32,000 bases of DNA, taken from contig VGXV01000015.1 of assembly GCA_016873165.1 (NCBI GenBank), positions 6,413 through 38,412 on the forward strand, read 5' to 3'. The notes under the pieces are model-generated. The model made no database searches and was not told the origin of the DNA. It saw only the letters and a list, made by a program, of their open reading frames with translations. The position numbers were made by a program, and so were the translations under genes. Source of the stretch: Planctomycetota bacterium (GTDB lineage: Bacteria; Planctomycetota; Brocadiia; Brocadiales; Brocadiaceae). Shown piece after piece: positions 614 to 32,000 of the stretch. The first letter of the stretch is position 1, and every line of letters begins with the position of its first letter.

Positions 614-2455
614 TTATTCTATCCGATACAACTTAATTGGGTTCTTTTTCCCCCTTAGGAGAACCTCCTTTTCCGGAATTATGTTATAGTTATTTTTTAA
701 TTGGGAAAATGTAGATTCTGTTATCAGAATGTTTGCATTCAATTCCTTTGTAATACCTTCAATACGGGAAGCGGTATTTACCGTATCACCGATGATGGTA
801 TATTCCATTTTCAGCTCCGATCCTATATTTCCCACAATGGCATACCCGGTATGAATGCCGATTCCGATTTTTAAGGGCGGGAGTATATTTTGATCTTTGT
901 TCAGCTTATCAAGACCCGCAATCATTTCTAAGGCAGAACGCACTGCCGACTCAGCGTGATCTTCCCGTATTACCGGCGCCCCGAAAAAAGCAAGAATGCC
1001 GTCTCCAAGATACTTATCCAACGTCCCTTTATTTTTTAAAATAATATCGGCCATTATGGAAAAATATGAATTCAATAAAGAAACAATGTATTGCGGATCT
1101 TTATTCTCGGATAACGGAGTAAAACCCCTGATATCCGCGAACAGTATTGTCGCATGTACGCGGTTTCCTCCAAGATGCAGCGAATCAGGGAATTTTAATA
1201 TTTCATCAACAACCTCTCTGCTCACATATCTCTTGAATATTTTTTTCACCATCCGCTTTTCTTTGTCCTCAATTGTGTAACGATAAGCAAACACCGCAGT
1301 ATAGGCAAGCGGAATGCTCCCTATGGGGCAAACAAGCTGCAAAAAAATGTTATAATAAGCAAAAAGCGCAATGCAGACAAAAACATAAATTCCCAGCAAG
1401 GAAAAGGATGCGATACATCCTGTAACAGGTGATAACCGGAAAGATATAAAACTTGTCAGGATTCCAAGAAATAAAATAATTGCCACCGTTTGCCATTCTT
1501 CCGGCGGCATTATAAAATTTTGCCGGAGTATTGTATTTATCGTATTTGCAATAATTTCCACACCCAACGTCTGCGGGGTTCCTGAATAATATTTTGAACG
1601 GTAATACGGCGTCGGTTTGAAATCCTGACTATATATGTTCCCCGGTCCTATCAGAACAATCTTATCATGGAAATGTTCTCTGAAATAATCTTCCCTTTCA
1701 AGAGAGGCCATTTCCCAAATTTCATAGAATGACAACATAGGAACGGTTCCGCTCGGACCGGCAAAATTAATGCTCATTTCGTTGAACTCGTTTACCGGAA
1801 TTGCATAGTCCCCCACTATGATGTGATTTCCTTTTTTTTCAATGTGGCTGTTGAGCGCCTTTGCAATCACTTTCAGTCCGATATAAGCATACAAATTATT
1901 TTCAACATCACTCATCAGCAGAATCTGCCTGCGCACACATCCGTCACGGTCAATGGTTAGGTTTGAAAAACCAACGTTATCGGGATCTGCCGCATATAAA
2001 TATCGTGGCAGCGGATTGAGCGCCCTCAATCCATTTATTGTAGTATCCCAGCGTAGTAAATTAATCATAATAACATTTTCCGCTTCCATTAACGCATCCG
2101 CCATTATGGCATCATGATCTGTTCCCGCAATTTTATCCTTTAAGGAAATCGTTTGTAAAAAATCTATCCCTATCGCCTTTGCGCCGCCGCCGGCAACCGC
2201 TTTAATAATTTTTGCAAAATAAGGATTCCAGAATACAAAGGGATCTTTAATTTCATTAAGCGCCTTCTCATCAGTGCCGATAATAACAATCCTGTCACTG
2301 ACCGGTATTGAGCCCCTTGCCAGAAACCTGAAATCGTAACTTCTTCTTTCAATGCTCTCAAAAAAATTACTGTACTGTACGGCTGCCATGATAATGCCGC
2401 ACAACAAACCGATAACTATAATGCAGGTATAATATTTAAATGTATGCTTCAACAT
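614..2455 (-). CDS. membrane sensor adenylate cyclase: CHASE2 extracytoplasmic domain + TM bundle + class III cyclase domain
   Basis: 613-aa ORF. N-terminal TM helix (CIIVIGLLCGIIMAAV). CHASE2-like motifs YDFRFLARG...DRIVIIGTDEKAL...AKAIGIDFLQ. Three to four TM helices at aa ~322-395. Class III cyclase motifs ATILFADIRGFTPLSE, LDKYLGDGILAFFGAP, EYTIIGDTVNTASRIE. The Lys (KYLGDG) plus Thr (YTIIGD) substrate-pair pattern is the class IIIb adenylate type. Confidence 0.9.
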   Translation of the reverse strand: MLKHTFKYYTCIIVIGLLCGIIMAAVQYSNFFESIERRSYDFRFLARGSIPVSDRIVIIGTDEKALNEIKDPFVFWNPYFAKIIKAVAGGGAKAIGIDFLQTISLKDKIAGTDHDAIMADALMEAENVIMINLLRWDTTINGLRALNPLPRYLYAADPDNVGFSNLTIDRDGCVRRQILLMSDVENNLYAYIGLKVIAKALNSHIEKKGNHIIVGDYAIPVNEFNEMSINFAGPSGTVPMLSFYEIWEMASLEREDYFREHFHDKIVLIGPGNIYSQDFKPTPYYRSKYYSGTPQTLGVEIIANTINTILRQNFIMPPEEWQTVAIILFLGILTSFISFRLSPVTGCIASFSLLGIYVFVCIALFAYYNIFLQLVCPIGSIPLAYTAVFAYRYTIEDKEKRMVKKIFKRYVSREVVDEILKFPDSLHLGGNRVHATILFADIRGFTPLSENKDPQYIVSLLNSYFSIMADIILKNKGTLDKYLGDGILAFFGAPVIREDHAESAVRSALEMIAGLDKLNKDQNILPPLKIGIGIHTGYAIVGNIGSELKMEYTIIGDTVNTASRIEGITKELNANILITESTFSQLKNNYNIIPEKEVLLRGKKNPIKLYRIE

Positions 2456-2475
2456 GGCAGTGAAAGAATGATGTC

Positions 2476-5400
2476 TTATGTCTTCTTTTTCTTTTTACTT
2501 TTCATCGTGAGGTTTTTTGCCACCTCCTCGTTTATTTTCAACGTGATTTTCTCTTTCGTGTATTTTTTATAACCGTCTTTCTTGGCGATCATCTTATATT
2601 TTCCCGATTCCAGTTCGGTAAACGAATACCTGCCTTCACTGTCAGAGGTGGTTTCTTCCTCAAAAGATTTTTTCTTTATTGTTACCGATACCCCTTCCAA
2701 AGGTTCTCCGGTTTTTTTATCGGTTACCGTGCCTGTAATAGCAGAAGATTTCGGATCGATCTCAAGTCCTATATCCCTTTCCGTTGTGGAAAGGGCGTTT
2801 ACCTTTGCCGTCTCCGTATTCTCTATATACCCTGACATCTGTGCAGAAACGGAATATTCGCCCGAATCCAGCTCCATAACATACGCGCCGCTATCAGTTG
2901 TCGTATACGAGCCGTCAATGCCTTCCACATGAACAGCCGAACCCCCAAGCTCCGCGCTTGTATCGTTGTCAAAGACAATTCCCTTGATGAATCCCGGATA
3001 GCCATTCGACAATTTTGCGGTAAAGCTGTTTATGGATTCCGTTTCAGCAGCGCTTGTGAATCTGCGGGAAGAATATCCCGTGCCATTTTCCCCCATGAGA
3101 GTAGTTCCGCCGTCTACGTCAGAGGCAAGCACCTTCCAGTAATATATCGTTGAATCTCTCAGGTTCGCCTCTTTATCAACAACCGCATAACTGTCATCCA
3201 GTCCCCTTTCACGGTAATAAATCGAATCAAAATTCTCGTCTGTTGAAACAGTAATGGTATATGTTACCGGCTCATCGCTATCGGGGTCAGTACTGTCTTC
3301 CCAGTCAAAGGCAAGGGCAACGGCAGTATCAGTTCCATTGGTAGGGAAAACGGCATTAAACGGAGTGGGAGGCTGATTTTCCGCCTTATTTCTGATTATA
3401 TCGGATTCCATAAAAAGAGAAACATCGTTCGTTCCTTTCTCCCGTGCAAAATAAAATACTTCGTATTCCCCCGGTTCGCTGAAATTATCCAACTCTTTGT
3501 TACTGCTGAAGTTATTCCAGATAAATTCATTCTCAGCCTCATCAACTTCATTGTAGCGAAACCTGTGGAGGTCTATTTCCTGCTGTTCTGTCATATCTTC
3601 CTTGTTTTTTAATGTATGCCCTGGTTCTGCTATTTCCACCCATGCCTCATCTACGATAGATACGTCTTCCAATTCGGCAGTCACCGTAGGTCCTGCATCT
3701 TCCGGTTCAAGGGTAACGATATCCATACTGTCGGTGAACTCAATTGATTCCGTCACTGTTCCTATGCCCATAATGATATCGGCGGACAACTCACCATCTG
3801 CGTTATCCATGGAAGAAAGGATGCCATACGTTCCAACGCCATCCCCATTATCATCAATAAGCGGATGCTGGGCATATTCATCAAAATAATGGCCGTTTCC
3901 CGCGCTTGCGCCATTCAACCCGTTGCCATTTTCATTTTCGGTATACTCGGCTATTTTTTCCGCCGCTTCTTCGTAACTCTTCTTAATCGTTTTTCCGTTA
4001 GAAAGAGAATTCATAAGTTCCACGACAAAAAAGTCGCCGTGCCGCAGTGTCTCATCCGGGGCCAAAGGTCCTTTATATGAAATTTCTTCAGAATCACAGC
4101 TTGTGATAATAATACGATTTGAATCCGCCTTGGACAAACCATTGATAAAACTTCCCGAACGATTGGCGCCTATTACAACAATAATTGGTTCGTCCAGCGC
4201 TTCAGTTCCAAGTGAAGATTCGAGACGATCAATATTGTCTGACAAATCGGACACGGCAATCGACTCTTCGGAGTAAATGGGAAAATTTTCTTTTTTTCCA
4301 TGCCCTACCAAAAATATATACAATGGAGCAGGAGTCTCATTCATTTTTTCGGCAGCCCATGACCGTATCGCATTTTCTATCCCTTCGTGTGAAGGATCGT
4401 CATCCACCCCTGCCTGTTCCCCATTGTAGTTAAAATAGTATATTCCGTCGTCGGTAAATCCTCTTTCAATAAGTTTATTATATATATAGTTTGTTGTGAG
4501 ATTGTGGGAATCTATTCCATCGCCGCCCTTCACTTTCCCTTCAACAATTATGGCATACCCCGCAACTTCTTTAGGGGAGTCCTGCACCTCTATTTCCACA
4601 CTTGCAGTTTGAGTTCCAAGGAAACTTTCGGTTTCGCCGAATCCCGTCATCAGTTCCCATGTGCCAAGAACGGGCAAACTTACGCCGGAAAATTTGTAGA
4701 GAAGCTGATCTCCTGAAAGAAACGGCTGCGTTTCGAACACATCTTCATATTCTTCTTCCGGATTTATTCGTAGTAACTTAAGATTTTCCTTCGTAAACGC
4801 TTCTCTGGTAATTTCATTATCGGGAGTCAATGCAATGACTCCGGAAACATCAACGGTTTGATCAATATGGATTGCTGCGGATAAAGATTCAATCGTTAAG
4901 GCAACAGATGCCTGATTTACCGTAAATGACACCCCATCACTTTTTGCGCTTTTGTAATCAGTGTTTCCTTCCCAGCTTGCCGTAACCGTCCATGCTCCGC
5001 CCGATGGTGGATAATAATCGGAAAGGGAAAAAATGCCCGCATCGTTCGACACAACCGTTTCCGTATCTGTTTCCCCATTAGTTTTTGTAAAGGTGAGAAC
5101 AACATCCACCTGGAGTGAGGGGATAATCCTGCCGGTAACCGATAGAGACTCTCCAAACGTAATTTCAGTTGAAGACAGGTCAATTTCAATGGCAGATTCT
5201 CTTTGATATACGGAAATATAATCCCCGATAGTTTGAGTCACAGAGGAATCAGCGTCAGATACGGTCAAACTTACCGTATAACTGCCGGCAGAGGAATAAA
5301 CATGAATAGGATTTTGTGCGGTATCGGCGGCGTCATCTCCGAAATCCCACAACCATGAAATAACTCCACCGGTTGATGTATCGGTAAATTGCACTACTAA

Positions 5401-6897
5401 CGGCCATGTTCCTGATGTGGGGATAGCAGTGAAGTCTGCCGTTAGCGTATCGGCTACCGATATACAACTGTCAACCGTTTTCGTATTTGAACCATCAGGG
5501 CCTGACACCGTCAGACTTACGGTATATTTTCCTGTTGCATTGTAGGTATGAGTCGGATTTTGTGTTGTATCCGTAGCGCCATCGCCAAAATTCCACAACC
5601 ACGAAAAAATCTCTCCTGTCGATGCGTCGGTAAATTGGACGGTAAGGGGCGCTTCGCCGGAGGTGGGTTTTGCGGTGAAATCAGCTTTGGGGCCATCAGC
5701 AGAAACACCAATAGCGTAAACATTTCCGGTGGCGCCGCCAATATAGAGAATGCCGTTGTCGCCAATACAAGGGGCGCCAATAATTTCTTCTCCCGCTTTA
5801 TATGTCCACTTTAAGGTTCCGTCATTGTTGATTGCATAAATATTTTTATCCGAAGAACCGAAATATATGGTTCCATATTTATCAATTGCAGGCGCAGTGA
5901 TTACATTCCCCGTTTCATATGTCCATTTTAAAGAACCCGCTGTTCTCTCTAATGCATAAAGAGTTCCGTATGCTGAAGGCGCATAAATCGTATTTGCCCC
6001 GGAAAGGGTATCTAATGCCAGCGCAGATTCCCCAAATGCATTCCCGGTAACATATGACCACTTGAGAGAACCATCATATTTATCCAGACAAAATATTACC
6101 CCTTCCTCAGAAGGGAAAATTACCTGTTCATTTTCCTCGTCGATAACGGGCGAGCCCGACACGAAATCGCTTGTATTAAAACTCCAAAGAGTTGCCATCG
6201 TATTGGCATTTATTGCATAAAAATATCCATCCAATGTTCCCGTAAAAAGGATTTTCCCCTCGTTATCAATTGCCAGCGGAGACCATATTTCGTCAGATAG
6301 CTTTTTCTGTTGCAGCAAATTTCCGTTTGTATTAAGGGCATATAAATAATTTGCTTCATCGCCAAAATACAAAATACCGCTTTCAGGGTTAATTACCGGA
6401 GAGGAACTAATAGGCCCGTTTGCCAGGTAACGCCACTTGAGTGTGCCGTTTCTTTCTAACGCGTAGAAATATCTGTCATCAGAACCAAAATAAATAGTTC
6501 CATTTACATCTATTATTGCCGTGGAATAAATATCGCCGCTTTCGTAAATCCAGTTTTTTGTGCCATTCGGGTGAATCGATACAAATTCCCCCTCAATATT
6601 GCCAATATAAATGGCGCCGTCCTCTCCCAGTACCGGGGAAGCGATAAATTCGCCTTCCGTTTGATATTTCCAAAACAGCACATTTTCAATCGGGACATTC
6701 GAGTCCGTGCTTTGTCCGGTATGCTGAGCATCATGCATAAACATCGGCCAGGGGCTATTGGCAAGTTGGGCATGGAGAGGAAATACGTAAAAAAAGATGG
6801 CAACAAAACTAAAAAAACAGACGCAGTAACAAAAACGGAAAGTATGAGATTGTCTTAAAATTAAGAATTTATAATTGCGGTGCAAGAAACGAACCAC
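2476..6897 (-). CDS. giant secreted multidomain protein: 8-bladed PQQ/BamB-like beta-propeller, 2 PKD domains, Ig-like domains, legumain (C13)-like domain, acidic region, FN3-like domain, 2 CarboxypepD_reg-like domains, poly-Lys tail
   Basis: The ORF track gives 2476..7017 (1513 aa). I prefer GTG at 6897..6895 because AGGAGA (6909..6904) lies 6 nt upstream, and it yields a signal peptide ...FRFCYCVCFFSFVAIFFYVFPLHA|Q. Eight repeats of G-x-IYFGS-x-D-x-x-(F/L)YA(L/I)-x-x-x-G-x-LKW-x-Y span ORF-track aa 88-437. Two PKD-type units (ADFTAxPTSG...QFTD.STG...W.W.FGD...NP.H.Y...G.YTVSLTV) lie at aa 445-521 and 527-603. The C13-like region is aa ~819-1025. The C-terminus reads ITGTVTDKKTGEPLEGVSVTI...SDSEGRYSF..L..GKY. 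The stop is 20 bp before the cyclase start. Confidence 0.85.
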   Translation of the reverse strand: MVRFLHRNYKFLILRQSHTFRFCYCVCFFSFVAIFFYVFPLHAQLANSPWPMFMHDAQHTGQSTDSNVPIENVLFWKYQTEGEFIASPVLGEDGAIYIGNIEGEFVSIHPNGTKNWIYESGDIYSTAIIDVNGTIYFGSDDRYFYALERNGTLKWRYLANGPISSSPVINPESGILYFGDEANYLYALNTNGNLLQQKKLSDEIWSPLAIDNEGKILFTGTLDGYFYAINANTMATLWSFNTSDFVSGSPVIDEENEQVIFPSEEGVIFCLDKYDGSLKWSYVTGNAFGESALALDTLSGANTIYAPSAYGTLYALERTAGSLKWTYETGNVITAPAIDKYGTIYFGSSDKNIYAINNDGTLKWTYKAGEEIIGAPCIGDNGILYIGGATGNVYAIGVSADGPKADFTAKPTSGEAPLTVQFTDASTGEIFSWLWNFGDGATDTTQNPTHTYNATGKYTVSLTVSGPDGSNTKTVDSCISVADTLTADFTAIPTSGTWPLVVQFTDTSTGGVISWLWDFGDDAADTAQNPIHVYSSAGSYTVSLTVSDADSSVTQTIGDYISVYQRESAIEIDLSSTEITFGESLSVTGRIIPSLQVDVVLTFTKTNGETDTETVVSNDAGIFSLSDYYPPSGGAWTVTASWEGNTDYKSAKSDGVSFTVNQASVALTIESLSAAIHIDQTVDVSGVIALTPDNEITREAFTKENLKLLRINPEEEYEDVFETQPFLSGDQLLYKFSGVSLPVLGTWELMTGFGETESFLGTQTASVEIEVQDSPKEVAGYAIIVEGKVKGGDGIDSHNLTTNYIYNKLIERGFTDDGIYYFNYNGEQAGVDDDPSHEGIENAIRSWAAEKMNETPAPLYIFLVGHGKKENFPIYSEESIAVSDLSDNIDRLESSLGTEALDEPIIVVIGANRSGSFINGLSKADSNRIIITSCDSEEISYKGPLAPDETLRHGDFFVVELMNSLSNGKTIKKSYEEAAEKIAEYTENENGNGLNGASAGNGHYFDEYAQHPLIDDNGDGVGTYGILSSMDNADGELSADIIMGIGTVTESIEFTDSMDIVTLEPEDAGPTVTAELEDVSIVDEAWVEIAEPGHTLKNKEDMTEQQEIDLHRFRYNEVDEAENEFIWNNFSSNKELDNFSEPGEYEVFYFAREKGTNDVSLFMESDIIRNKAENQPPTPFNAVFPTNGTDTAVALAFDWEDSTDPDSDEPVTYTITVSTDENFDSIYYRERGLDDSYAVVDKEANLRDSTIYYWKVLASDVDGGTTLMGENGTGYSSRRFTSAAETESINSFTAKLSNGYPGFIKGIVFDNDTSAELGGSAVHVEGIDGSYTTTDSGAYVMELDSGEYSVSAQMSGYIENTETAKVNALSTTERDIGLEIDPKSSAITGTVTDKKTGEPLEGVSVTIKKKSFEEETTSDSEGRYSFTELESGKYKMIAKKDGYKKYTKEKITLKINEEVAKNLTMKSKKKKKT

Positions 6898-7380
6898 TAC
6901 GTTTCTCCTTTTTTGATGCATCAAGATAAATAATAATTCTGCTAAAAAAACTTTTTTTAAATAATGTATATTCAATAATTTACGCATTATACAAAAACGC
7001 AAATCAGTTTGCCTCAAAAAAAAATATAGTATTACATTATCTTACTCCTGTTTTTTCATGTGAATAGGATTTATATCACACTTTATGAAAAATCCTCAGG
7101 ATTCATATCTAAGTTTTCAATAATGAAATATTTTAATATTTAGGAATTTCAATCTGTTCTTGTAGCGGCAAGGAGTGCCTTGCCACTACGTTGTTAAAAG
7201 TTGCCGAAGACTTAATTAACATTTTATAAAAAATAAAAGAATATTGGTGTGCGATAAATACGTTATAACTATTTCAATTTACGAATTAAGGTAATTTTGT
7301 CTTTCATTTTTTTAAAAATCCTGATAATCTGTCCTTATAGTCGAATATTGTTATTCCATTAATACCCTCGTATTTTATTA

Positions 7381-8882: not shown

Positions 8883-8959
8883 TGGTAGCGGTGGAGGGAT
8901 TCGAACCCCCGACATGCGGCTTATGAATCCGCTGCTCTAACCAACTGAGCTACACCGCC
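8883..8959 (-). tRNA. tRNA with CAT anticodon (elongator Met, or Ile2 if lysidine-modified), CCA encoded
   Basis: The reverse complement reads GGCGGTG-TA-GCTC-AGTTGGTTA-GAGC-A-GCGGA-TTCATAA-GCCGC-ATGTC-GGGGG-TTCGAAT-CCCTC-CACCGCT-A-CCA. This is a full cloverleaf of 77 nt with a GTTCGAAT T-loop. It lacks the C1xA72 and GGG/CCC initiator signatures. Confidence 0.88.
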
Positions 8960-24028: not shown

Positions 24029-25114
24029 ATGGAAAATTATATTTTAACCCAGGCGTTAGATTATATAAGCAGGGGAATTATGATCCAGGATGTGAATCGC
24101 CGGGTTGTATTTTTTAATCATGCCTGCGAAAAAATTACGAAAAGAACCAAAAACGAAGTGGTTGGCAAAGATTGCGGTGATATCTTTAAGTGCCACACTT
24201 CCTCTGGGTTGTGCATAACCGACAAATGTTGTCCCGGTACGGAAATACTGAATGGCAACCTTTCCCAGGGATCACGGGAACTGTTGATCAACAGAGGAGA
24301 TAATCGTGAATCATGGATAAGGGTGAATGTGTCTCCTATTAAAGACAAAGCAGGAAAGGTTACCCATATCATTTCCGTTATAGAGGATGTTAACGAAACA
24401 AAAAGATTTTCCGACGAAATTATCAAATCAAAAGCATTATCCTCCTTTGGCGCGCTAGCCTCTGAACTGGCTCATGAAATAAAGAATCCCCTCAATGCCA
24501 TGAATGTTCAATTATTATTATTAAAGCATGAAATAAACGATACTTATAGCAACGGTGGGTCTCAAAAAAATGAATTGTTGAAAATTGTGTCCATCGTTCA
24601 AAATGAAATTAATCGCTTAAGCAATTTTGTGGGAGAATGTTTGCAGTTCGCAAAAACAGGCGAACTCAACAAAAGCCATGTGCATATTCATGAAATGCTT
24701 ACCGACATCATTGCATTGCTGAATCCCCAGGCGCAACTGAATGGCATTCAGTTGAAGCTGGACGTTATGGAGAATGTTCCTGCTGCAAATATTGACAAGG
24801 ACAAGATAAAACAGGCTATTCTGAATATTCTCATCAACGGGATCGAAGCAATGCCGGATGGTGGGGAAGTATATATAAACGCCAGCAAGGCAGATGACGA
24901 TATTATTATTACCTGTCATGACACAGGACCCGGCATACCGGAAGAATCCAGGGATAAAATATTTAATTTATTCTATACTACCAAGGATGGAGGCACAGGG
25001 ATAGGCCTTTCTTCCGCGCAAAATATCATACAGATGCACGGCGGAACAATACGGCTGGCACCCTCTGCCGTTGGCTGCAAATTTCTCATTACCATTCCTG
25101 CGGATCAGGAATAG
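24029..25114 (+). CDS. cytoplasmic sensor histidine kinase: Cys-rich PAS + HisKA + HATPase_c
   Basis: The ORF track starts at 23957. ATG 24029 is preferred because GGAG lies 8 nt upstream. There is no TM segment. PAS-like N-terminus with six Cys. H-box ELAHEIKNPLNAM, N-box LNILINGIEAM, G1 HDTGPGIP, G2 GGTGIGLS. Confidence 0.85.
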   Translation: MENYILTQALDYISRGIMIQDVNRRVVFFNHACEKITKRTKNEVVGKDCGDIFKCHTSSGLCITDKCCPGTEILNGNLSQGSRELLINRGDNRESWIRVNVSPIKDKAGKVTHIISVIEDVNETKRFSDEIIKSKALSSFGALASELAHEIKNPLNAMNVQLLLLKHEINDTYSNGGSQKNELLKIVSIVQNEINRLSNFVGECLQFAKTGELNKSHVHIHEMLTDIIALLNPQAQLNGIQLKLDVMENVPAANIDKDKIKQAILNILINGIEAMPDGGEVYINASKADDDIIITCHDTGPGIPEESRDKIFNLFYTTKDGGTGIGLSSAQNIIQMHGGTIRLAPSAVGCKFLITIPADQE

Positions 25115-25136
25115 AAAAAAAGGCTTTAATAATAGC

Positions 25137-26483
25137 ATGACAAAACCAAAGTTATTACTGGTCGAAGACGATAAAAATACGCTCGACGGATTGATCAAAA
25201 TCTTAACACGGAGCGGGTATACCGCTTCCGGTGTCACTTCCGGTTACGAAGCGCTGAACCAACTTTCAAAGGAAGATTTTGATATTATTATTACAGATAT
25301 GAAGCTTCCCGGAATGGGAGGGTTATCATTACTCCAGGAAATAAAGAAAAAAAATGCCTCTATTGCCATTGTCGTTATTACGGCATACAGTTCCATCAAA
25401 TCGGCGGTAGATGCAGTGAAACATGGAGCCGATGAATATTTGACGAAGCCGCTGGATGTGGAAGAACTTGAGCTGGTTTTGGAAAAACTGTGGAATAAAC
25501 AACAACTTATCCTTCAAAACCGCCAGCTAAAGGAGGAACTGAAGGATAAATATACATTTTCCGAACTTGTCGGCGGTTCTCCGCAAATGCACCGGATTTT
25601 TAAAATGATCGAGGATGTTGCTCCCAGCACTGCCTCTGTTCTTATTCTGGGAGAGACGGGAACAGGAAAGGAACTTGTGGCGCATGCTATTCATTATCGG
25701 AGCGAAAGGGCCGGGAAGCCATTCGTGGCATTGCATTGTGCCGCTCTTTCGGAAGGGGTTTTGGAGAGCGAATTATTTGGCCACGAAAAGGGCGCCTTCA
25801 CGGGCGCTATTCAATCCCGAAAGGGACGGTTTGAACTTGCAGACGGCGGAACCCTTTTTCTGGACGAATTAGCAGAGATGAGCCTGAAAGTCCAGGTCAA
25901 ATTGTTGCGCGTTCTGGAAAAAGGAGAGTTTGAACGAGTTGGCGGGGAGAAAACAATAAAAGTAGATGTGCGGTTTATTGCCGCAACAAATCGCAACCTC
26001 GAAAAGGAAGTTTCAGAGGGAAGATTCAGGGAAGATTTATTTTATCGTCTTAACGTCATCAGCATCCATCTGCCCTCGTTGAGAGAAAGAAAAGAAGATA
26101 TTCCCATTCTTTCAAATTATTTTGTTGTTAAATACGCAAAGAAATACAAAAAAGAGATAAAAGGAATCGACCAGGAGTCGATAAAAGCGCTGTGCTCCCA
26201 TCATTGGCAGGGCAATATCAGGGAACTGGAAAATACCATCGAACGGGCTGTTGTGCTGTGTAAAGGAGATTCTATTTCAATTGATCACTTGCCGGAGAGT
26301 ATTATACCGGACAATGAATATGTGCCGGTAATTAAAATACCCGTAGGCACTACCCTGAAAGAGGCTGAAAAAGAAATTATTCAAAAAACACTCCAGGTGA
26401 CCAATGGCAGCAAACAATCTGCCGCTAAAATATTGGGCATATCTGCACGAAAAATCGAATACAAAACCAAAGAATGGAGTTAA
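25137..26483 (+). CDS. NtrC-family sigma-54-dependent response regulator (REC + AAA+ + Fis-type HTH)
   Basis: The ORF track start 25071 overlaps the kinase gene. ATG 25137 gives MTKPKLLLVEDD. REC motif IITDMKLPGM, Walker A GETGTGKE, sigma-54 contact loop GAFTGA, Walker B LFLDEL, C-terminal HTH QSAAKILGISARKIEYK. Confidence 0.93.
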   Translation: MTKPKLLLVEDDKNTLDGLIKILTRSGYTASGVTSGYEALNQLSKEDFDIIITDMKLPGMGGLSLLQEIKKKNASIAIVVITAYSSIKSAVDAVKHGADEYLTKPLDVEELELVLEKLWNKQQLILQNRQLKEELKDKYTFSELVGGSPQMHRIFKMIEDVAPSTASVLILGETGTGKELVAHAIHYRSERAGKPFVALHCAALSEGVLESELFGHEKGAFTGAIQSRKGRFELADGGTLFLDELAEMSLKVQVKLLRVLEKGEFERVGGEKTIKVDVRFIAATNRNLEKEVSEGRFREDLFYRLNVISIHLPSLRERKEDIPILSNYFVVKYAKKYKKEIKGIDQESIKALCSHHWQGNIRELENTIERAVVLCKGDSISIDHLPESIIPDNEYVPVIKIPVGTTLKEAEKEIIQKTLQVTNGSKQSAAKILGISARKIEYKTKEWS

Positions 26484-26718
26484 TAGCGAAAAAAATTTCT
26501 TCCTTTTTGCCTTATTAAAAGAGTATATCAAGAGAACACACAAAGGCTTTTCGCTAAAAATCCCTCGAAATAAAAAACCAAATACGAAATTTTTTCGCTC
26601 TTTTTTCTGACTCACCTCATATCAACGTAAATTTTTCGGGAAAGCCATTCATTGGCGCTCTCTCCTCAACCAAATCACCTCACTCATAAAATACTGACGA
26701 TGTAAATAAGCGTTTGCA

Positions 26719-26731
26719 TATCAATGCCTTA
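26719..26731 (+). promoter_or_regulatory. IHF-consensus-like site between candidate UAS and the sigma-54 promoter
   Basis: TATCAATGCCTTA matches WATCAANNNNTTR exactly and is followed by an A/T tract. It sits about 35-45 bp upstream of the -24 element. Confidence 0.25.
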
Positions 26732-26760
26732 CGGAAACAGGAAAAATAATAATTTTTTTT

Positions 26761-26777
26761 TGGGCACAATGATTGCG
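26761..26777 (+). promoter_or_regulatory. sigma-54 (-24/-12) promoter
   Basis: TGGGCACAATGATTGCG contains GGCAC (26763-26767), N5, then TTGC (26773-26776), which gives the GG-N10-GC spacing of the TGGCAC-N5-TTGC consensus. It lies 280 bp downstream of a sigma-54 activator gene and 211 bp upstream of the next ATG. Confidence 0.65.
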
Positions 26778-26987
26778 ATCTGATTATCCAGGCATTTGAA
26801 GTGTAAGGACAAAAAATTTTATGATTGTTAGTTTATTTTGAGAAAGGAGGCTGATCCATTAAATCACCACAAAGAAAAGAGACGTCCCATTTAATAAAGA
26901 AGTTGCGCGGTAAAGTATGGTGAGTATTGAAAGTGTTTTGACCGATATTTTAAAAAATTTACATTATCTTAGAAGGAGTAAACAATT

Positions 26988-27698
26988 ATGGCTATATCAA
27001 CTGGAGAATTTTTTGACAAATTAGAAACAGATATTTTAAAACATCCGGCAGTTAATGATCACCCATATCTGCAAAAATTCAGAAAAAATGCGGATATGAA
27101 GAGGGTAAAATTATACGCAGAACAATATTATTGTTTTTCAAGACATTTCTCGCGGTATTTGGCCGGCGCAGTTGCAATCTGTCCTGATGAAGCAGGCAGG
27201 GCCCCTTTAATTAAGAATTTATTTGAGGAATACGGCGGCAGAAGCGAAGAGAAAAGAGGCATGGATGCAGAGCTTACTCATCCTGCTATTTTCCGCAGAT
27301 TCCTGAAAGCAGCCGGGGTCAATACCGACCAGCAGGCATTGGATAATATAGTAATGTTGCCGGAGACAAAATTGTTTGTTGAAAAATACCTGAACATTCA
27401 TTATATGGATTATGTTGAAGCACTGGGAGCCTTGGGACCAGGAACGGAATTTATCGTGCCTACGATGTATCAGCCAATTCGTGAAGGCTGTAAACGCGCC
27501 GGTTTAAACGATGATGCAGTGCTCTTCTTTTCCGCTCATATTGAATTGGATGTCGAGCATGCTGCAAATATCAGGCACTCTCTGGCATTTTGTTCCAAGA
27601 CCGATGAACAACAGAGGAAAATAAGGAAGGGCGCTTTTGATTTCCTTGATGCAAGAACGGTTTTGTGGGACGGATTAGAGAAGGCATCAAAATTTTAA
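26988..27698 (+). CDS. heme-oxygenase-like diiron oxidase/oxygenase family protein (CADD/PqqC-like, Haem_oxygenas_2 type)
   Basis: 236 aa, with AGAAGGAG 9 nt upstream. Motifs are HPYLQKF, AEQYYCFSRHF, NLFEEYGG...THPAIFRRF, ALGALGPGTEF and FFSAHIELDVEHA. Together they form the pattern E...H / E / H-x3-D-x2-H that matches the six-ligand diiron set of CADD-type proteins. Confidence 0.75.
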   Translation: MAISTGEFFDKLETDILKHPAVNDHPYLQKFRKNADMKRVKLYAEQYYCFSRHFSRYLAGAVAICPDEAGRAPLIKNLFEEYGGRSEEKRGMDAELTHPAIFRRFLKAAGVNTDQQALDNIVMLPETKLFVEKYLNIHYMDYVEALGALGPGTEFIVPTMYQPIREGCKRAGLNDDAVLFFSAHIELDVEHAANIRHSLAFCSKTDEQQRKIRKGAFDFLDARTVLWDGLEKASKF

Positions 27699-27771
27699 TC
27701 AAACCGTTTTGGTTCATTAGAATTATTCCTGCATTTCAATTTGTAAACACCAACAAGGAAAGGAGTATTTT

Positions 27772-29349
27772 ATGGGATCTTTGTTTATCCCAAACAAATC
27801 AAGGGCTACAGGGACATGGACCCGTTTAGGCGATGAAGTATTGCCGCAAAGTGGTATGTGTGTTACCTGCCTGGACGGTTGTCCGGGATATTGTGAAATA
27901 GGTAAATCCGCCTATAGGGGCCCTGAAGCAATTTACCCTGTTCCGTTTGGTGAAATTACCGCAGGGGCTCAAAAGGACTTCCCTGTTGATTTCTCGCATT
28001 TTAATATTACAGGTTCAATCACAGGTCACCACCAAAAGGAATATGATCTGTTTACCAATGCCAGCATTGAGACAAAAATGGGAAGGGACGGCGGTCTTAA
28101 ATTGCGGATCCCCATAATCTGTACCGGCCTTGGTTCAACAAAAATTGCCCAAACCCATTTTGAGTCTTTAGGCACTGGCGCTGCTATCTGCGGTTCAGGC
28201 ATCGTTCTCGGGGAAAATGTTGCTGCGATGGATGACAAATCAACCATTACAGATGGCAAAGTGACAAACAGTCCCGAATTAATCCGGCGTTTCAAATCTT
28301 TTAAAGATCATCAAAAAGGTGGTTACGGTTTTATTGCAATTCAGGCAAACCAGGAAGACTGGAGGCTGGGAGTATTGCCGTACTGTCTGGAAAAACTAGG
28401 CGCCGATGCCCTCGAACTGAAATGGGGGCAGGGCGCCAAAAATATTGGCGGCGAAGTAAAATTAACCTCCATTGAAAAAGCCATCAGGCTAAAAAAACTC
28501 GGATATGTTGTTATCCCCGACCCTGAAGACCCGATTACACAGCAGGCATTTCAAAACGGCACAATTAAGGGATTTGAAAGGCACACAAGAATTTGCGCAA
28601 TACCGGACGCCATGTCGAGGGCGTTTGACGGGTTTATGGATGACGTTCAGCATTTAAGAAATGCCGGCGCCAAATATATTTTTCTGAAGACAGGGTCTTA
28701 CCGGCCTTCTGATCTGGCACGCGCAATCAAATTTGCGTCATGGGCAAGAATTGACGTCCTGACTATCGACGGCTCCGGCGGCGGAACAGGCATGAGCCCC
28801 TGGCGCATGATGAATGAATGGGGTTTGCCAACCGTGTATATCGCCGCTTTAACATACCAATATTGCAAAAGGCTGGCAGACCGCGGCGAATACGTGCCCG
28901 ATATTGTGCTGGCGGGAGGACTTGTTTCGGAAGACCATATTTATAAGTCTTTTGCTCTTTTGTCGCCATTCATCAAGGCAGTCGGAATGTCACGGTCAAC
29001 TATTTGCGCTGCAATGGTTGGCAATACCATTGGCAAGTCAGTGGCGGAAGGGAAAGTGCCAAAACCCGTTTCGGAATTTGGTTCTACCACCGATCAAATC
29101 TTCTATTATTCACAGAAGGTAAAAGACCAATTCGGCACTGTTCCCGCCGGCGCTATTGGAATGTATTCTTATTATCAACGGCTTGCAACAGGGTTGAGAC
29201 AACTGATGGCAGGGTCGAGAAGATGGTCGGTAACAAACATCACAAGAGATGATATTTTTACATTAACAAGAGAAGCAACCGATATTACAGGAATCACCTA
29301 TATCATGGATTATGACAAAGAACAGGCGGAAAGAGTTTTGGATGCATAA
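27772..29349 (+). CDS. glutamate-synthase FMN-domain family protein (GltB domain-2-like) with N-terminal 4-Cys motif
   Basis: 525 aa, with GGAAAGGAG upstream. CVTCLDGCPGYC (C-x2-C-x3-C-x3-C) at aa 30-41. LELKWGQGAKNIGGEV, IDGSGGGTGMSP and VLAGGL motifs parallel GltS IKIAQGAKPGEGG / ISGHDGGTGASP / DGGL. Confidence 0.8.
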   Translation: MGSLFIPNKSRATGTWTRLGDEVLPQSGMCVTCLDGCPGYCEIGKSAYRGPEAIYPVPFGEITAGAQKDFPVDFSHFNITGSITGHHQKEYDLFTNASIETKMGRDGGLKLRIPIICTGLGSTKIAQTHFESLGTGAAICGSGIVLGENVAAMDDKSTITDGKVTNSPELIRRFKSFKDHQKGGYGFIAIQANQEDWRLGVLPYCLEKLGADALELKWGQGAKNIGGEVKLTSIEKAIRLKKLGYVVIPDPEDPITQQAFQNGTIKGFERHTRICAIPDAMSRAFDGFMDDVQHLRNAGAKYIFLKTGSYRPSDLARAIKFASWARIDVLTIDGSGGGTGMSPWRMMNEWGLPTVYIAALTYQYCKRLADRGEYVPDIVLAGGLVSEDHIYKSFALLSPFIKAVGMSRSTICAAMVGNTIGKSVAEGKVPKPVSEFGSTTDQIFYYSQKVKDQFGTVPAGAIGMYSYYQRLATGLRQLMAGSRRWSVTNITRDDIFTLTREATDITGITYIMDYDKEQAERVLDA

Positions 29350-29368
29350 TTTAATTACCTATACCATA

Positions 29369-29402
29369 AGAGGAAAAACTGCCGAAAAACAGTTTTTCCT
29401 CT
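29369..29402 (+). terminator. perfect 13-bp stem hairpin just after the GltS-like stop
   Basis: AGAGGAAAAACTG (29369-29381), an 8-nt loop, CAGTTTTTCCTCT (29390-29402). The downstream sequence GTAATTTAT is only weakly T-rich. Confidence 0.45.
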
Positions 29403-29432
29403 GTAATTTATCGTATAGGAATTTCAAAGTCG

Positions 29433-29514
29433 AGATTCTTCGTCACTCCGTTCCTCAGAATGACATGCTCAAAAGTCATTCTGAATATAGCGAAGCGGAA
29501 TGAAGAATCTAATT
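29433..29514. repeat. nested-palindrome REP-like element, copy B
   Basis: Outer arms are AGATTCTTC (29433-29441) and GAAGAATCT (29502-29510). Inner arms are TCAGAATGAC (29455-29464) and GTCATTCTGA (29475-29484). It has the same orientation and near-identical right half as copy A. Confidence 0.9.
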
Positions 29515-29569
29515 TGATGAAGTGTGATAAATCAATGGTTTTTGTCTTTTAACGGAAAGAGGAAAAGAA

Positions 29570-30082
29570 ATGGCAAATTTAACTTTAAAAGATTTGGATG
29601 CAATGTCTGTTGATAAGGCGCAACAGTTGTCGTTCGAGGAAAGGGATAAATTACTGGATCTCATCCTGAAGGATTCCTTAAAAAATGTCGGCAAACAACC
29701 GGAACGGCAAATAGGGTTAATGAGCGATTATTTTGAAGAAGATATGGTACGGCTCACAAAGGTACGGGCAATAAAAATACGCTGCGGCGGTTTTATTCCG
29801 GTAGACGCATCGGGAGAAGTGCCAAGCCTTGTGCCAAAAGAACAGTTTAAACTGGTATTTACAAACCTAAAAAACGCATTGGAAAAGATGGGTTCAAAAC
29901 TCGACAGAGTAGTAAATATGATTATTTTCCTTAAAAATATGGATTACTGGGGCGAAATGAATGCTGTTTACAGGGAATTTGTCAAATCGTGCCCCACCCG
30001 CGCCGCAATCGGGATACAAGATTTGAACAAAACGTATCAAATAGAATTGGTAAATATTATTGCCTATAAGGTGGCAAAATAG
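29570..30082 (+). CDS. RidA/YjgF/L-PSP family protein with ~60-aa N-terminal extension
   Basis: 170 aa, with AGAGGA 6 nt upstream. The C-terminal ~110 aa match RidA topology: GFIPVDASGEV...KEQFKLVFTNLKNALEKMGSKLDRVVNMIIFLKNMDYWGEMNAVYREF...CPTRAAIGIQDL...IELVNIIAY. The Arg of the P-x-R motif is retained. Confidence 0.72.
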   Translation: MANLTLKDLDAMSVDKAQQLSFEERDKLLDLILKDSLKNVGKQPERQIGLMSDYFEEDMVRLTKVRAIKIRCGGFIPVDASGEVPSLVPKEQFKLVFTNLKNALEKMGSKLDRVVNMIIFLKNMDYWGEMNAVYREFVKSCPTRAAIGIQDLNKTYQIELVNIIAYKVAK

Positions 30083-30314
30083 TTTTACTTCAACGCATCA
30101 GTCTTGTCTTAAAACAGCATACATAATAATTGAAAATGCCTGTTTAATGATGTGTCCCTCCCCATGTTTTTCTCTTATTCCATGAACCTCTGCTATGGAC
30201 TTTGTCATAAAAGGAAAATATCTTGAGAAGTAGCGAAATATATTGTTAACTAACACAGTGGCAAATTCGTTATCTCTATGATAAAAGCGAATACTAAACG
30301 AGAAGAACATTTCA

Positions 30315-32000
30315 ATGAACTCCCCTCTTTTGCTGAAAAACAGGAAAATTAAAAATCCTCTCTTAAAAAGCGTTCATACCCGGCTTGACGACGCAGTAGA
30401 AGTCATCCGGCAGAAAGACCCCGCTTTTTACAAAAATTGTCATAAATTATTTTCCGTCCTCAAGTCGCCGCAAAATGTCTGGAAAATGCCTTTGGAATTT
30501 TTCACAGACAGTGGCAGGAAATTAGTTCTTTTTATTGCCGTAGTTTTTCACAACCTTGTCCTCGGCCCGCCAAAAGGCGGCATGCTATTTATCTCTCCCC
30601 ATATTCTCGGAGAAAACTTTTTTGACCTTTTTGACAGATTGCGGGAGGAAAAACCCTCTCTTGATGAAATCAGAGAATTTTGTTTCGAATGGGTCTCTGA
30701 AGAAATAGAAGCCCTTTCCATCGTAACCACGTTAAAACTTGCCTTGTATTCTCTTCCTCTTGGAGGAGGAATGTGCGGAGTTTTTCTTGGCGAACCGGAA
30801 TCCATAAAAGGTGAAATATTTCTGAAAACCATTGAACTTACAAATGCGGAGAAAAAGAGATTGGCCAGAGAAATAGGATATTTGCTCACCAAAGAAGGGA
30901 TTATGGGATATGATGCATATTCTCCGGGACCGGATATAGGCACTGACGGGGCAACGATGGATTCACTGGCAGACGGCCATTTCAGGGCATTAACTGAAAT
31001 GGAAAAAATTAAGGAAAAAGATCTTCTGGAAAAATTAAAAAGCATCCGTGACGCTGAAATTGTATGGACGGAAGGTCTTCCTTACATAAAAACAGCGGCT
31101 GAGTTCGCGAAAGAAATAAGAAACCATGATCATACAAAACGAAGTATTCCCGAATTAGGCGCCGTTACGTTCAAAACTCATGGAGGACTGGCAGGCAGGG
31201 GAGAAGCCACCGCATTTGCCGCAGTAGAGATTGCCAATCTTCTGGTTTGGTACAATGAAAATCCAAAGGACTATTTAAAGGTGCGGATTGGGAGAGAAAG
31301 GAAGAATTTTTTAACGGGAAAAACGGTAATAATACATGGTTTTGGCAGCATCGGATTAAATTCCGCACAATTTTTTTCTTTAAAAGGAGCAAAAATTATT
31401 GCGGTAAGCGAGTATGTAAAAAAAGAAAAGAAAGTAGTCTCCATTTATAATTATCAGGGATTAAATATAGACGATTTGATCAAACACAAAGAAAAATATG
31501 GAAGTATTTGTGGATTCCACGAAGCAAATGTTTATGCCGATCCGTACCATTTATTAAAAGAAAAGGCCGATATCATTTTTTTGGCGGCCATAGAAAATCA
31601 GATACATGCCCATAATGCCGAAAGTATTCAGGCACGTTATGTTGTTTCCGCCACCAACGCGGGAATTTCTCAGGAAGGATATCGTATTCTTATAAAAAAC
31701 GGGAAGATCGTGGCCAGGGATTCCATTGTGAAATCCGGCGGAATCATCGGCTCTTACCTGGAAAAAATACAGAACGCCCAAAACGACCAGTGGGAGAGGG
31801 AATACGTTTTTGAAGATGTTATGTCGAGAATAGAAAATGTATTAAAAAATAATGTAATCAAAAACCTGGTGGAAAAATATTCTATCGATTTATCAGTTGC
31901 AGGCGATGTGGTAGCGATTAAAAGAATTATCAGCACCATGGAAGCAAAAAGTCTCCATCTTGAGAAAAAAAGCACAAAGAAACCCATAATAATAGGAATC
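30315..32000 (+). CDS. Glu/Leu/Phe/Val dehydrogenase-fold protein, divergent, partial (continues beyond window end)
   Basis: Absent from the ORF track because it runs off the edge. I translated 562 stop-free codons from ATG 30315. Motifs in GDH order are FIAVVFHNLVLGPPKGGMLF, TTLKLALYSLPLGGGMCGV, YSPGPDIGTDG, FKTHGGLAGRGEATAFA, GKTVIIHGFGSIGLNSA (Rossmann), FLAAIENQIHAHNA, VVSATNAGIS and GGIIGSYLEKIQNAQNDQW. The minus-strand ORFs listed in this region are shadows. Confidence 0.8.
   Translation, partial: MNSPLLLKNRKIKNPLLKSVHTRLDDAVEVIRQKDPAFYKNCHKLFSVLKSPQNVWKMPLEFFTDSGRKLVLFIAVVFHNLVLGPPKGGMLFISPHILGENFFDLFDRLREEKPSLDEIREFCFEWVSEEIEALSIVTTLKLALYSLPLGGGMCGVFLGEPESIKGEIFLKTIELTNAEKKRLAREIGYLLTKEGIMGYDAYSPGPDIGTDGATMDSLADGHFRALTEMEKIKEKDLLEKLKSIRDAEIVWTEGLPYIKTAAEFAKEIRNHDHTKRSIPELGAVTFKTHGGLAGRGEATAFAAVEIANLLVWYNENPKDYLKVRIGRERKNFLTGKTVIIHGFGSIGLNSAQFFSLKGAKIIAVSEYVKKEKKVVSIYNYQGLNIDDLIKHKEKYGSICGFHEANVYADPYHLLKEKADIIFLAAIENQIHAHNAESIQARYVVSATNAGISQEGYRILIKNGKIVARDSIVKSGGIIGSYLEKIQNAQNDQWEREYVFEDVMSRIENVLKNNVIKNLVEKYSIDLSVAGDVVAIKRIISTMEAKSLHLEKKSTKKPIIIGI

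Follow-up and report, generated by a model that had tools for sequence, protein, structure and literature searches.

A predicted sigma-54 operon pairs a heme-oxygenase-like diiron protein with a glutamate-synthase-like flavoprotein in Brocadiia

Introduction

Why should a gene for a heme-oxygenase-like diiron protein (HDO) stand directly in front of a gene for a glutamate-synthase-like (GltS-like) flavoprotein, here called GltSL, in an organism of the anammox lineage? The question is raised by a stretch of 32,000 nucleotides (nt) of contig VGXV01000015.1 from a Planctomycetota bacterium (the window, to which all positions refer unless a locus label is given), where the two genes follow a two-component regulator pair and a predicted sigma-54 promoter. 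A sequence-only reading of this DNA had described a sigma-54-controlled cluster of four atypical enzymes, namely HDO, GltSL, a RidA-family protein and a protein with a glutamate dehydrogenase (GDH) fold, and had taken them for one dedicated pathway of a modified amino acid or other nitrogen-containing metabolite, distinct from central glutamate synthase (GOGAT) and GDH metabolism. Our analysis supports the regulated unit, the co-localisation of HDO with GltSL and the non-archetypal nature of the enzymes, and speaks against both the four-enzyme pathway and the separation from central nitrogen metabolism.

The interpretation that we put forward, and to which we give an even chance, is that hdo-gltSL (26988-29349) is an operon of the glutamate/2-oxoglutarate nitrogen network in Brocadiia, induced through sigma-54 and a two-component system, in which HDO would be the lineage-specific partner of the synthase. 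Its elements are the following.

26762-26777, + strand: -24/-12 element GGGCACaatgaTTGCG, 9 of 11 consensus positions, 226 nt 5' of the HDO start
26988-27698, + strand: heme-oxygenase-like diiron protein (HDO), 236 amino acids (aa), PF14518, 103 bits
27772-29349, + strand: GltS-like protein (GltSL), 525 aa, partial match to PF01645, 44 bits against a gathering threshold of 20.4

Survey of loci

The nearest named relatives of the window are metagenome-assembled genomes (MAGs) labelled 'Ca. Kuenenia hertensis', 'Kuenenia sp.', 'Brocadia sp.' and Planctomycetes RIFOXY, and it is on account of these relatives that the host is placed, by sequence, in Brocadiia, the anammox lineage. Sequence past the window end was read from the matching 78-kb metagenome contig JGI 3300020198 Ga0194120_10000444, the source contig, labelled L001 (L-numbers denote fetched loci and P-numbers proteins).

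For the neighbourhood survey, an alignment of HDO homologues led to 79 loci from species-representative genomes, 40 of which belong to Brocadiia. Open reading frames (ORFs) in these loci were labelled with the window proteins, complemented by de novo clustering and Pfam. The contexts of GltSL outside Brocadiia were surveyed in 85 loci, and in 80 of these GltSL could be placed among labelled neighbours.

The hdo-gltSL pair across Brocadiia

GltSL lies directly 3' of the HDO gene in 29 of the 40 Brocadiia genome loci, which answers the question of co-localisation across genomes in favour of the sequence-only reading. Six further loci carry a START-domain gene and then canonical gltB-gltD 3' of HDO; four stop at a contig end, and a single locus has neither GltSL nor gltB-gltD. 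An HDO gene followed by a glutamate-synthase-type gene was observed in 35 of the 36 informative loci. The partner can be of either kind: in Scalindua, HDO also heads canonical gltB-gltD operons, one Scalinduaceae genome shows the order GS-III, gltB, gltD, HDO, GltSL, and locus L028 runs kinase, activator, aminotransferase, HDO, gltB, gltD. The number of HDO copies varies from one to three, with two or three tandem paralogues in non-anammox Brocadiia.

This adjacency in 35/36 loci, set against the clade-limited distribution of the RidA-like and GDH-like genes described below, shows that the conserved core consists of HDO and a glutamate-synthase-type gene behind a sigma-54 promoter, and not of four enzymes.

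Two observations on individual loci may be added. The Scalindua MAG CAZPAM01 contains two HDO genes with 99% identity (L031 4796-5503 and L036 10001-10705) in different contexts, one being citrate synthase, HDO, START, gltB and the other aminotransferase, HDO, GltSL, with different upstream DNA; gene conversion or a strain mix in the MAG could account for the twin copies. A gene for a MIP-family channel adjoins the HDO-GltSL cluster in L015 and L016 (11775-12920) and lies inside it in L023.

Regulator pair and promoter

Directly 5' of the HDO operon, in the window clade as well as in non-anammox Brocadiia, stand a kinase gene and an activator gene. These genes and the palindromes that follow them in the window are listed here.

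24029-25114, + strand: PAS histidine kinase (Pfam PAS_9, HisKA, HATPase_c), soluble, no membrane segment
25137-26483, + strand: NtrC-family sigma-54 enhancer-binding response regulator (Response_reg, Sigma54_activat at 247 bits, AAA_lid_14, HTH_8)
26585-26597 (exact) and 26626-26638 (1 mismatch), no strand: two CGAAA-N3-TTTCG palindromes, 125-175 nt 5' of the -24 element

The sigma-54 consensus was taken as GG-N10-GC with TGGCAC-N5-TTGCW. Four other + strand sites in the window reach 9/11, and the score of GGGCACaatgaTTGCG alone is unexceptional; the element gains its credibility from its alignment with -24/-12 motifs upstream in the orthologous loci L013 and L015-L017 and from the recurrence of the motif across the lineage, where 32 of the 38 informative Brocadiia loci match at least 8/11 positions 5' of the HDO gene. 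The strict form, TGGYAY-N5-TTGCD, is as a rule found once in each Scalindua locus, 60-110 nt 5' of the HDO gene, and a second strict copy is found 5' of GltSL in L024, L036 and L051. In L177 only a weak motif was found 5' of the HDO gene. GltSL loci from other phyla (L093, L156, L159 and L174) likewise have a strict motif 3' of the activator gene. The element 5' of hdo is a predicted sigma-54 promoter. The near-consensus promoter and the two-component control claimed earlier are upheld by gene order and promoter conservation.

The activator has the receiver, AAA+ and HTH_8 layout of the NtrC-family enhancer-binding proteins, including GAFTGA at residue 219, and it scores below the equivalog cut-offs of NtrC (TIGR01818, 449.7 against 558.6) and AtoC (471 against 714). 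Likewise, the kinase remains under the NtrB cut-off (PRK11073, 100 against 240 bits). Four conserved cysteines, C-x5-C-x6-C-x5-C, were found in the PAS domain of 11 orthologous kinases, one of which has Ser at the third position, and the kinase is on this evidence likely to be a metal, Fe-S or redox sensor. The motif is reminiscent of Fe-S PAS sensors such as NreB, a resemblance that serves as a lead and not as a test.

Both palindromes fall in conserved blocks of the upstream-region alignment (L013, L015-L017) and are candidate activator binding sites, even though the pattern count in the whole window, 4 against 2.6 expected, is not significant by itself. The 226-nt leader and the rest of 26400-30400 gave no Rfam match at E <= 1, and the leader folds no better than its shuffles (z +1.5).

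The diiron protein

A 3His/3carboxylate motif on core helices 1-3 defines the HDO superfamily (PMC13108848). The window protein has the complete set, E81, H98, E154, H184, D188 and H191, of which E154 is nearly invariant and the other five invariant among 20 homologues, and alignment showed all six to be kept in 16 of 16 tandem paralogues. Its AlphaFold2 (AF2) model (predicted local distance difference test, pLDDT, 91; predicted template modelling score, pTM, 0.88) was matched by Foldseek to BesC (TM 0.81-0.85), CADD (0.74-0.84) and HrmI (0.82). Fold and ligand motif place the protein in the HDO superfamily, and binding of Fe2 or Fe/Mn and activation of O2 are predicted from them. The best NCBIfam match is TIGR04305 (CADD), at 67.9 bits against a cut-off of 200, and the BesC equivalog NF042919 gives 63.8 against 500. 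The clade has few members: among 1.84 billion cluster representatives, searched exhaustively, 13 reached E <= 1e-30 and 232 reached E <= 1e-10. An HDO-GltS gene fusion was sought among the HDO relatives and none was found, the long proteins being phosphorelay, rubredoxin or globin fusions.

More distant relatives occur in several other settings. In Saprospiraceae/Chitinophagales, a clade of ~33% identity with the ligands kept (L053-L091, e.g., L078 5954-7543 and L079 8872-10642) lies inside an ABC importer operon, in the order NMT1-type binding protein with OmpA domain, permease, HDO, ATPase, and an arginine deiminase gene is close by in 8 loci. Another relative, of 40% identity, is encoded 3' of an acyl-CoA-dehydrogenase-like gene. 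Fusions with 34-42% identity include HNOBA-HisKA-HATPase-REC-REC-Hpt-HDO (L179 67-4876, P0189), adjoining an H-NOX gene and an S-adenosylmethionine (SAM) methyltransferase gene, as well as REC-Hpt-HDO-methyltransferase, rubredoxin-like with PCP_red and HDO, and HDO-cupin-globin. HDO also forms the C-terminal domain of the hybrid-kinase/phosphorelay proteins P0225 and P0200, with 3 of the 6 metal ligands lost in P0225. A 5.1-Mb Brocadiia-type genome encodes a divergent paralogue (50% identity, 267 aa) at the end of a sulfite-reductase-like/PALP/JAB/TusA cluster (L176 5267-8804) and a closer copy (L177, 70% identity) that keeps the HDO-GltSL pairing and has no adjacent kinase or activator. These contexts fit an enzyme under signalling control and do not show the substrate of HDO.

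The GltS-like protein

The PF01645 match of GltSL covers only profile positions 193-296 (104 of 369). The protein keeps the flavin mononucleotide (FMN)-phosphate motif DGxGGTGxSP, and the four cysteines of its N-terminal motif C30-x2-C33-x3-C37-x3-C41 do not vary among 20 homologues drawn from many phyla (mean column identity 71%). The family is very large, as all but 3 of 8000 candidates scored significant (E <= 0.001), and identity is ~54% across Planctomycetota, Firmicutes, Acidobacteriota, Omnitrophica and Armatimonadota.

The relation to GltS itself is distant. Searches of the PDB with phmmer and the family profile found no GltS structure and hit only designed TIM barrels; alignment with canonical GltB by hhalign covered 32 columns, the DGxGGTGxSP segment only, at a probability of 28%. 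The AF2 model (pLDDT 79) is an FMN TIM barrel, and Foldseek ranks GltS (1ofe) 37th, behind alpha-hydroxyacid oxidases and IDI-2. By eye, GltSL 'ELKWGQGAKNIGGEVK' resembles the GltS loop '(I/L)EIK-AQGAKPGEGGQLPG'. The motif Cx5CHx3C, the 3Fe-4S motif of the GltS FMN domain, is absent from GltSL, and the four invariant cysteines at residues 30-41 are found instead. Neither a GATase_2 nor a GXGXG domain is present in the protein, and no gene for either adjoins it in the window or in the Brocadiia loci.

Outside Brocadiia, the neighbours of GltSL were observed to include genes of nitrogen and electron-transfer functions. A NuoE/NuoF/Fer2_4 module precedes GltSL in 44 of the 80 loci, most commonly in the order NuoE-like, NuoF-like, 2Fe-2S protein (Fer2_4), with GltSL as the last gene (e.g., L093 3891-8581, also L098-L174), and in several of these loci glnA, or a kinase-activator pair of sigma-54 type together with a -24/-12 motif, stands 5' of the operon. 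An ANTAR response regulator is encoded 5' of GltSL in 12/80 loci, glnA lies within four genes of it in 6/80, and canonical gdh (GGGKGG) is adjacent or near in 5-7/80; in Desulforudis the order is PII, amt, ANTAR, glnA, GltSL, ANTAR, glnA, glnA, followed by an archaeal-type GOGAT. HDO accompanies GltSL in none of the 80 loci. The arrangement NuoE/NuoF/Fer2_4/GltSL looks like an undescribed NADH-linked complex of Bfu-like layout, and the survey paper on Bfu (PMC9304861) has no mention of glutamate.

Judged from these contexts and the conserved motifs, GltSL would be an Fe-S flavoenzyme of nitrogen/glutamate metabolism that draws electrons from NADH modules or ferredoxin. Reductive amination of 2-oxoglutarate with NH3 would be its simplest chemistry, a reading that comes from genomic context.

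Two recurrent features of GltSL loci stand apart. A gene for a GlcD-like FAD oxidase or for a LarA-like protein (lactate racemase family) repeatedly flanks GltSL (L009 11853-13274, L048, L095 8595-9881, L041-L046), which may point to 2-hydroxy-acid/2-oxo-acid chemistry around it. In Thermincola (L092 10695-12285), a second ANTAR regulator near GltSL is followed by two genes for hemerythrin, a diiron protein of different fold, once more in surroundings under nitrogen regulation.

Downstream hairpins and the RidA-like and GDH-like genes

The 3' part of the cluster is set off from hdo-gltSL by two hairpins, as follows.

29369-29402 and 29455-29484, + strand: two hairpins 3' of gltSL with perfect stems of 13 bp and 10 bp
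29570-30082, + strand: RidA-family protein, PF01042 at residues 72-165 (69.6 against 27.3), with an N-terminal extension of ~70 aa
30315-32000, + strand: 5' part of a GDH-like/MurI fusion gene (PF00208 and PF02812), which runs ~1.07 kb past the window

The hairpin at 29369-29402 (-18.5 kcal/mol, z -6.9 against shuffles) was also found by a terminator scan, and the one at 29455-29484 has -13.2 kcal/mol and z -4.4. That two strong hairpins separate the first two genes from RidA had been entered earlier as a caveat; they are real and far more stable than their shuffles. Judged by their stability they probably mark the end of the sigma-54 transcript, and the RidA-like and GDH-like/MurI genes are then probably transcribed separately.

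The RidA-like protein passes the PF01042 gathering threshold and reaches 56.7 against a cut-off of 106 for TIGR00004; the Arg of its 'PTRAA' segment stands, as we take it by eye, at the place of the RidA catalytic Arg. The full fusion gene encodes 916 aa (L001 12544-15294), with a C-terminal glutamate racemase outside the window. Its PDB matches are GDH at residues 336-542 (E 1e-27) and MurI at 658-830 (2gzm, E 4e-20; 1b73, 2.5e-18). The racemase part matches PF01177 and has both catalytic Cys motifs ('ACNT' and 'ACTHY'). In the GDH-like part, the catalytic Lys is replaced by Met ('lplgggMcgv' aligned to 'lpfgggKggv' of T. maritima GDH, i.e., GGGMCG for GGGKGG), a replacement shared by all 7 full-length homologues; the NAD domain retains its GFGSIG motif, and the Asp of PGPD and the remaining substrate Lys residues appear by eye to be kept.

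Both genes are rare. RidA was found 3' of gltSL only in L013-L016 (4 of 40 Brocadiia loci), and the fusion only in L013 and L015 (2 of 40) besides the window's own contig; the fusion family comprises 9 protein clusters, all in the window's clade. In L016 and L017 a short stand-alone MurI-like gene lies divergently 5' of the HDO gene. By distribution, the two genes are a clade-specific, recent local add-on. They fit a glutamate theme, through imine hydrolysis, a GDH-fold domain for glutamate binding and D-glutamate for peptidoglycan.

Proposed mechanism

In the mechanism that we propose, the Cys4-PAS kinase would sense a redox, O2, NO or metal signal and phosphorylate the activator, which would bind the two upstream palindromes and open the sigma-54 promoter. 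GltSL would act as a glutamate-synthase-type enzyme without glutaminase, 2-oxoglutarate + NH3 + 2 e- <-> L-glutamate, via 2-iminoglutarate on FMN. Its electrons would be fed in Brocadiia by ferredoxin through an N-terminal [4Fe-4S] cluster, and in most other phyla from NADH by the NuoE/NuoF/2Fe-2S module. HDO would be dedicated to the glutamate synthase step as a partner specific to this lineage; most likely it would oxidise an amino-acid-like small molecule in an O2-dependent and possibly NO-linked reaction that would supply or remove a substrate or by-product of the synthase. The RidA-like and GDH-like/MurI proteins would be a clade-specific addition serving glutamate and D-glutamate.

A bolder version seems to us possible and rather doubtful: GltSL would be a new, widespread glutamate synthase of anaerobes, using NH3 without a glutaminase and fed by ferredoxin or a Bfu-like NuoE/NuoF NADH module, and HDO would have been recruited as an obligatory partner of glutamate synthases in the primary nitrogen assimilation of the anammox lineage under redox-sensing sigma-54 control. 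One conceivable task of the recruited HDO would be to deal with O2, NO or species derived from hydroxylamine at the 2-oxoglutarate/2-iminoglutarate step.

Weighing the interpretations

Several points weigh against a glutamate-network operon with HDO as synthase partner. GltSL is weakly GltS-like, and its substrate could be another 2-oxo, hydroxy or amino acid, since the profile search finds no GltS and Foldseek ranks other families higher; an NH3-dependent glutamate synthase beside canonical gdh would, moreover, look redundant. The kinase is no NtrB equivalog by score. Relatives of HDO stand in quite different contexts, such as the ABC importer, the acyl-CoA-dehydrogenase-like neighbour, the H-NOX phosphorelay fusions and the sulfite-reductase/PALP/TusA cluster. 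The literature searched holds no biochemistry on the window's HDO clade or the GltSL family. To our knowledge, every HDO characterised so far depends on O2 and serves secondary metabolism or the synthesis of para-aminobenzoic acid (pABA), and a role of HDO in the primary metabolism of an anaerobe is without precedent.

The earlier proposal, that HDO, GltSL, RidA and the GDH-like protein form one dedicated pathway, separate from central nitrogen metabolism, that makes or degrades a modified amino or imino acid, appears decidedly unlikely to us. It draws strength from the fact that known HDOs all make unusual metabolites or pABA (review PMC13108848), that the proteins closest in fold, BesC and HrmI, have lysine as their substrate, that the RidA and GDH-like/MurI genes stay near hdo-gltSL in the window clade, with a MurI-like gene in L016 and L017, and that the GDH-like domain is atypical yet conserved. 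The claim that the enzymes deviate from their housekeeping archetypes does hold, with HDO at 68 against 200 for CADD and 64 against 500 for BesC and with the GDH-like domain lacking its catalytic Lys. Nevertheless, the full set is confined to a narrow clade and divided by strong hairpins, and of the genes of a metabolite cluster no nonribosomal peptide synthetase (NRPS), ATP-grasp, tailoring, ligase, exporter or resistance gene is adjacent to the locus. A position outside central GOGAT/GDH metabolism is likewise at odds with HDO at the head of canonical gltBD operons in Scalindua, and with a ubiquitous GltSL family that is tied to nitrogen assimilation through glnA, PII, amt, ANTAR and sigma-54 regulators and canonical gdh. 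The option of degrading a nitrogen-containing metabolite, which was part of the same proposal, is compatible with the glutamate-network operon.

HDO might instead convert no small molecule and be an O2- or NO-reactive diiron sensor, electron sink or protector that is made together with O2- and NO-labile Fe-S glutamate synthases when the kinase detects an oxidant, and this we regard as unlikely. The four conserved Cys of the kinase PAS domain would suit it, as would the fusion of relatives to HNOBA-kinase-REC-Hpt beside an H-NOX gene, to a rubredoxin-like domain and to cupin and globin; HDO copies head both kinds of glutamate synthase operon, hemerythrin genes lie near GltSL under an ANTAR regulator in Thermincola, and a cbb3 oxidase is encoded 7 kb downstream on the source contig, from which it follows that the organism meets low O2. 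However, no HDO is known as a sensor or protector, and uncoupled turnover would yield peroxide and not remove the oxidant. In the fusions HDO sits after Hpt, in the position of an output domain, and a methyltransferase gene after one fusion and a methyltransferase fused in another suggest an enzyme, as the importer operons of the Saprospiraceae relatives also speak against sensing or protection. A CADD-type, self-sacrificing pABA synthase for folate, next to glutamate synthase genes by meaningless adjacency, is very improbable. Both by sequence and by fold CADD ranks with the best matches, TIGR04305 being the best NCBIfam match, and tandem paralogues would suit a single-turnover protein; against this, the TIGR04305 score stays below its cut-off. 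Position 27, the presumed counterpart of the sacrificial Tyr27 of CtCADD, is Tyr in the window HDO and Phe in many clade members, and the adjacency in 35/36 informative loci behind a sigma-54 promoter also speaks against a pABA synthase.

Flanking genes of the window

Positions 1-23800 of the window hold housekeeping genes (glmS, lpxD, fabF/D/H, plsX, alaS, recA, a 2'-5' RNA ligase-family gene (LigT) and gltX), and from 24029 onward follow the six genes described above, all on the + strand and with plausible Shine-Dalgarno sites. The positions and every domain call that had been given for these six were confirmed by Pfam and alignment, including the profile assignments that had been asked for (PF14518, PF01645, PF01042, and PF00208 with PF02812). 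On the - strand, 614-7017 encodes a CHASE2-adenylate/guanylate cyclase and a 1513-aa beta-propeller/PKD/CarboxypepD_reg surface protein with a Peptidase_C13 match; the ORF of the latter (2476-7017) was considered as canonical gltB and rejected. A tRNA-Met (CAT) gene lies at 8883-8959 (-). Two short ORFs called on the source contig were treated as spurious: 30098-30310 (-), 70 aa, which is without a conserved counterpart in the relatives, and 29342-29503 (+), 53 aa, which overlaps the hairpins.

Past the window, L001 15324-21578 (window coordinates ~33095-39349) continues 3' of the GDH-like/MurI gene with an amine-oxidase-family flavoprotein on the - strand, a FixI-type P-type ATPase, FixS and a cbb3-type oxidase (CcoNO). 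To find such a high-affinity oxidase in an organism of the anammox lineage is notable.

Significance

The regulatory logic and the protein superfamilies at this locus are of kinds already known, and there is a real chance of new biochemistry behind it. The literature searched gave no description of a link between HDO and glutamate synthase, of the GltSL family, or of NuoE/NuoF-GltSL operons. If the bolder version holds, this would be the first HDO to serve core metabolism in any way but pABA synthesis. A clade hard-wired to glutamate synthase genes would widen the range of a superfamily known only from natural products and pABA, and it would further prompt one to ask how an O2-activating cofactor is put to use in organisms that are largely anaerobic. 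The GltSL family has thousands of members with >50% identity across phyla and no solved structure, and it occurs in nitrogen regulons and in operons with NADH modules; to work out its reaction would close a gap in present models of how anaerobes, organisms of wastewater nitrogen removal among them, assimilate nitrogen. With a defined promoter, a regulator pair and two expressible proteins, the locus is a testable handle on these questions.

Comparison with known systems

Among characterised proteins, BesC (7TWA), HrmI (9N1X) and CADD (1RCW/8VA9) share with the window HDO the seven-helix heme-oxygenase-like fold (TM ~0.8), the full 3His/3carboxylate set and a single domain of similar size. The window protein differs from them in its 20-25% identity, below the family cut-offs, in a clade-specific insertion of 7-10 residues between the ligands E81 and H98, and in its place in sigma-54 operons with glutamate synthase genes of mostly anaerobic Brocadiia, in contrast to natural-product clusters.

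For GltSL, the closest comparison is the FMN domain of the GltS alpha subunit (PF01645) and the split archaeal-type GltS (GATase_2, Fer4-FMN and GXGXG, as in L011). The likeness comprises the FMN TIM barrel with DGxGGTGxSP, a QGAK-x2-GG loop seen by eye, a predicted Fe-S cluster beside the flavin, and the genomic company of glnA, gdh and nitrogen regulators. On the other side, GltSL is without glutaminase and GXGXG partners, has the N-terminal C-x2-C-x3-C-x3-C in place of Cx5CHx3C, and is not singled out as GltS by profile and fold searches.

Two further systems are comparable at the level of gene arrangement. The GltSL operons of other phyla resemble the Bfu-type NuoE/NuoF (HydBC-like) modules (PMC9304861) in having the Bfu core layout plus a catalytic subunit, a likeness of gene layout; the window has no such module, and HDO genes occupy that position. 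The 'counter-enzyme' complex GltAB-GudB of Bacillus subtilis (bioRxiv 10.1101/2021.04.12.439528) likewise joins a GDH-family protein to a glutamate synthase-type enzyme, and at the level of gene neighbourhood canonical gdh adjoins GltSL in several phyla and the GDH-like gene lies 1 kb downstream in the window. The GDH-like domain of the window differs in that it is without the catalytic Lys and fused to MurI, and its association is limited to one small clade.

The regulatory part is best compared with the NtrB/NtrC-sigma-54 control of glnA and gltBD in Proteobacteria. The window kinase and activator score under the NtrB and NtrC equivalog cut-offs, the Cys4 motif in the PAS domain suggests a redox or metal input and not PII, and the first gene of the operon is HDO. 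The common features are a soluble PAS kinase, an activator of receiver-AAA+-HTH_8 layout that contains GAFTGA, a -24/-12 promoter preceded by tandem palindromes, and a glutamate-synthase-type gene as the target, which in L028 is gltB-gltD itself.

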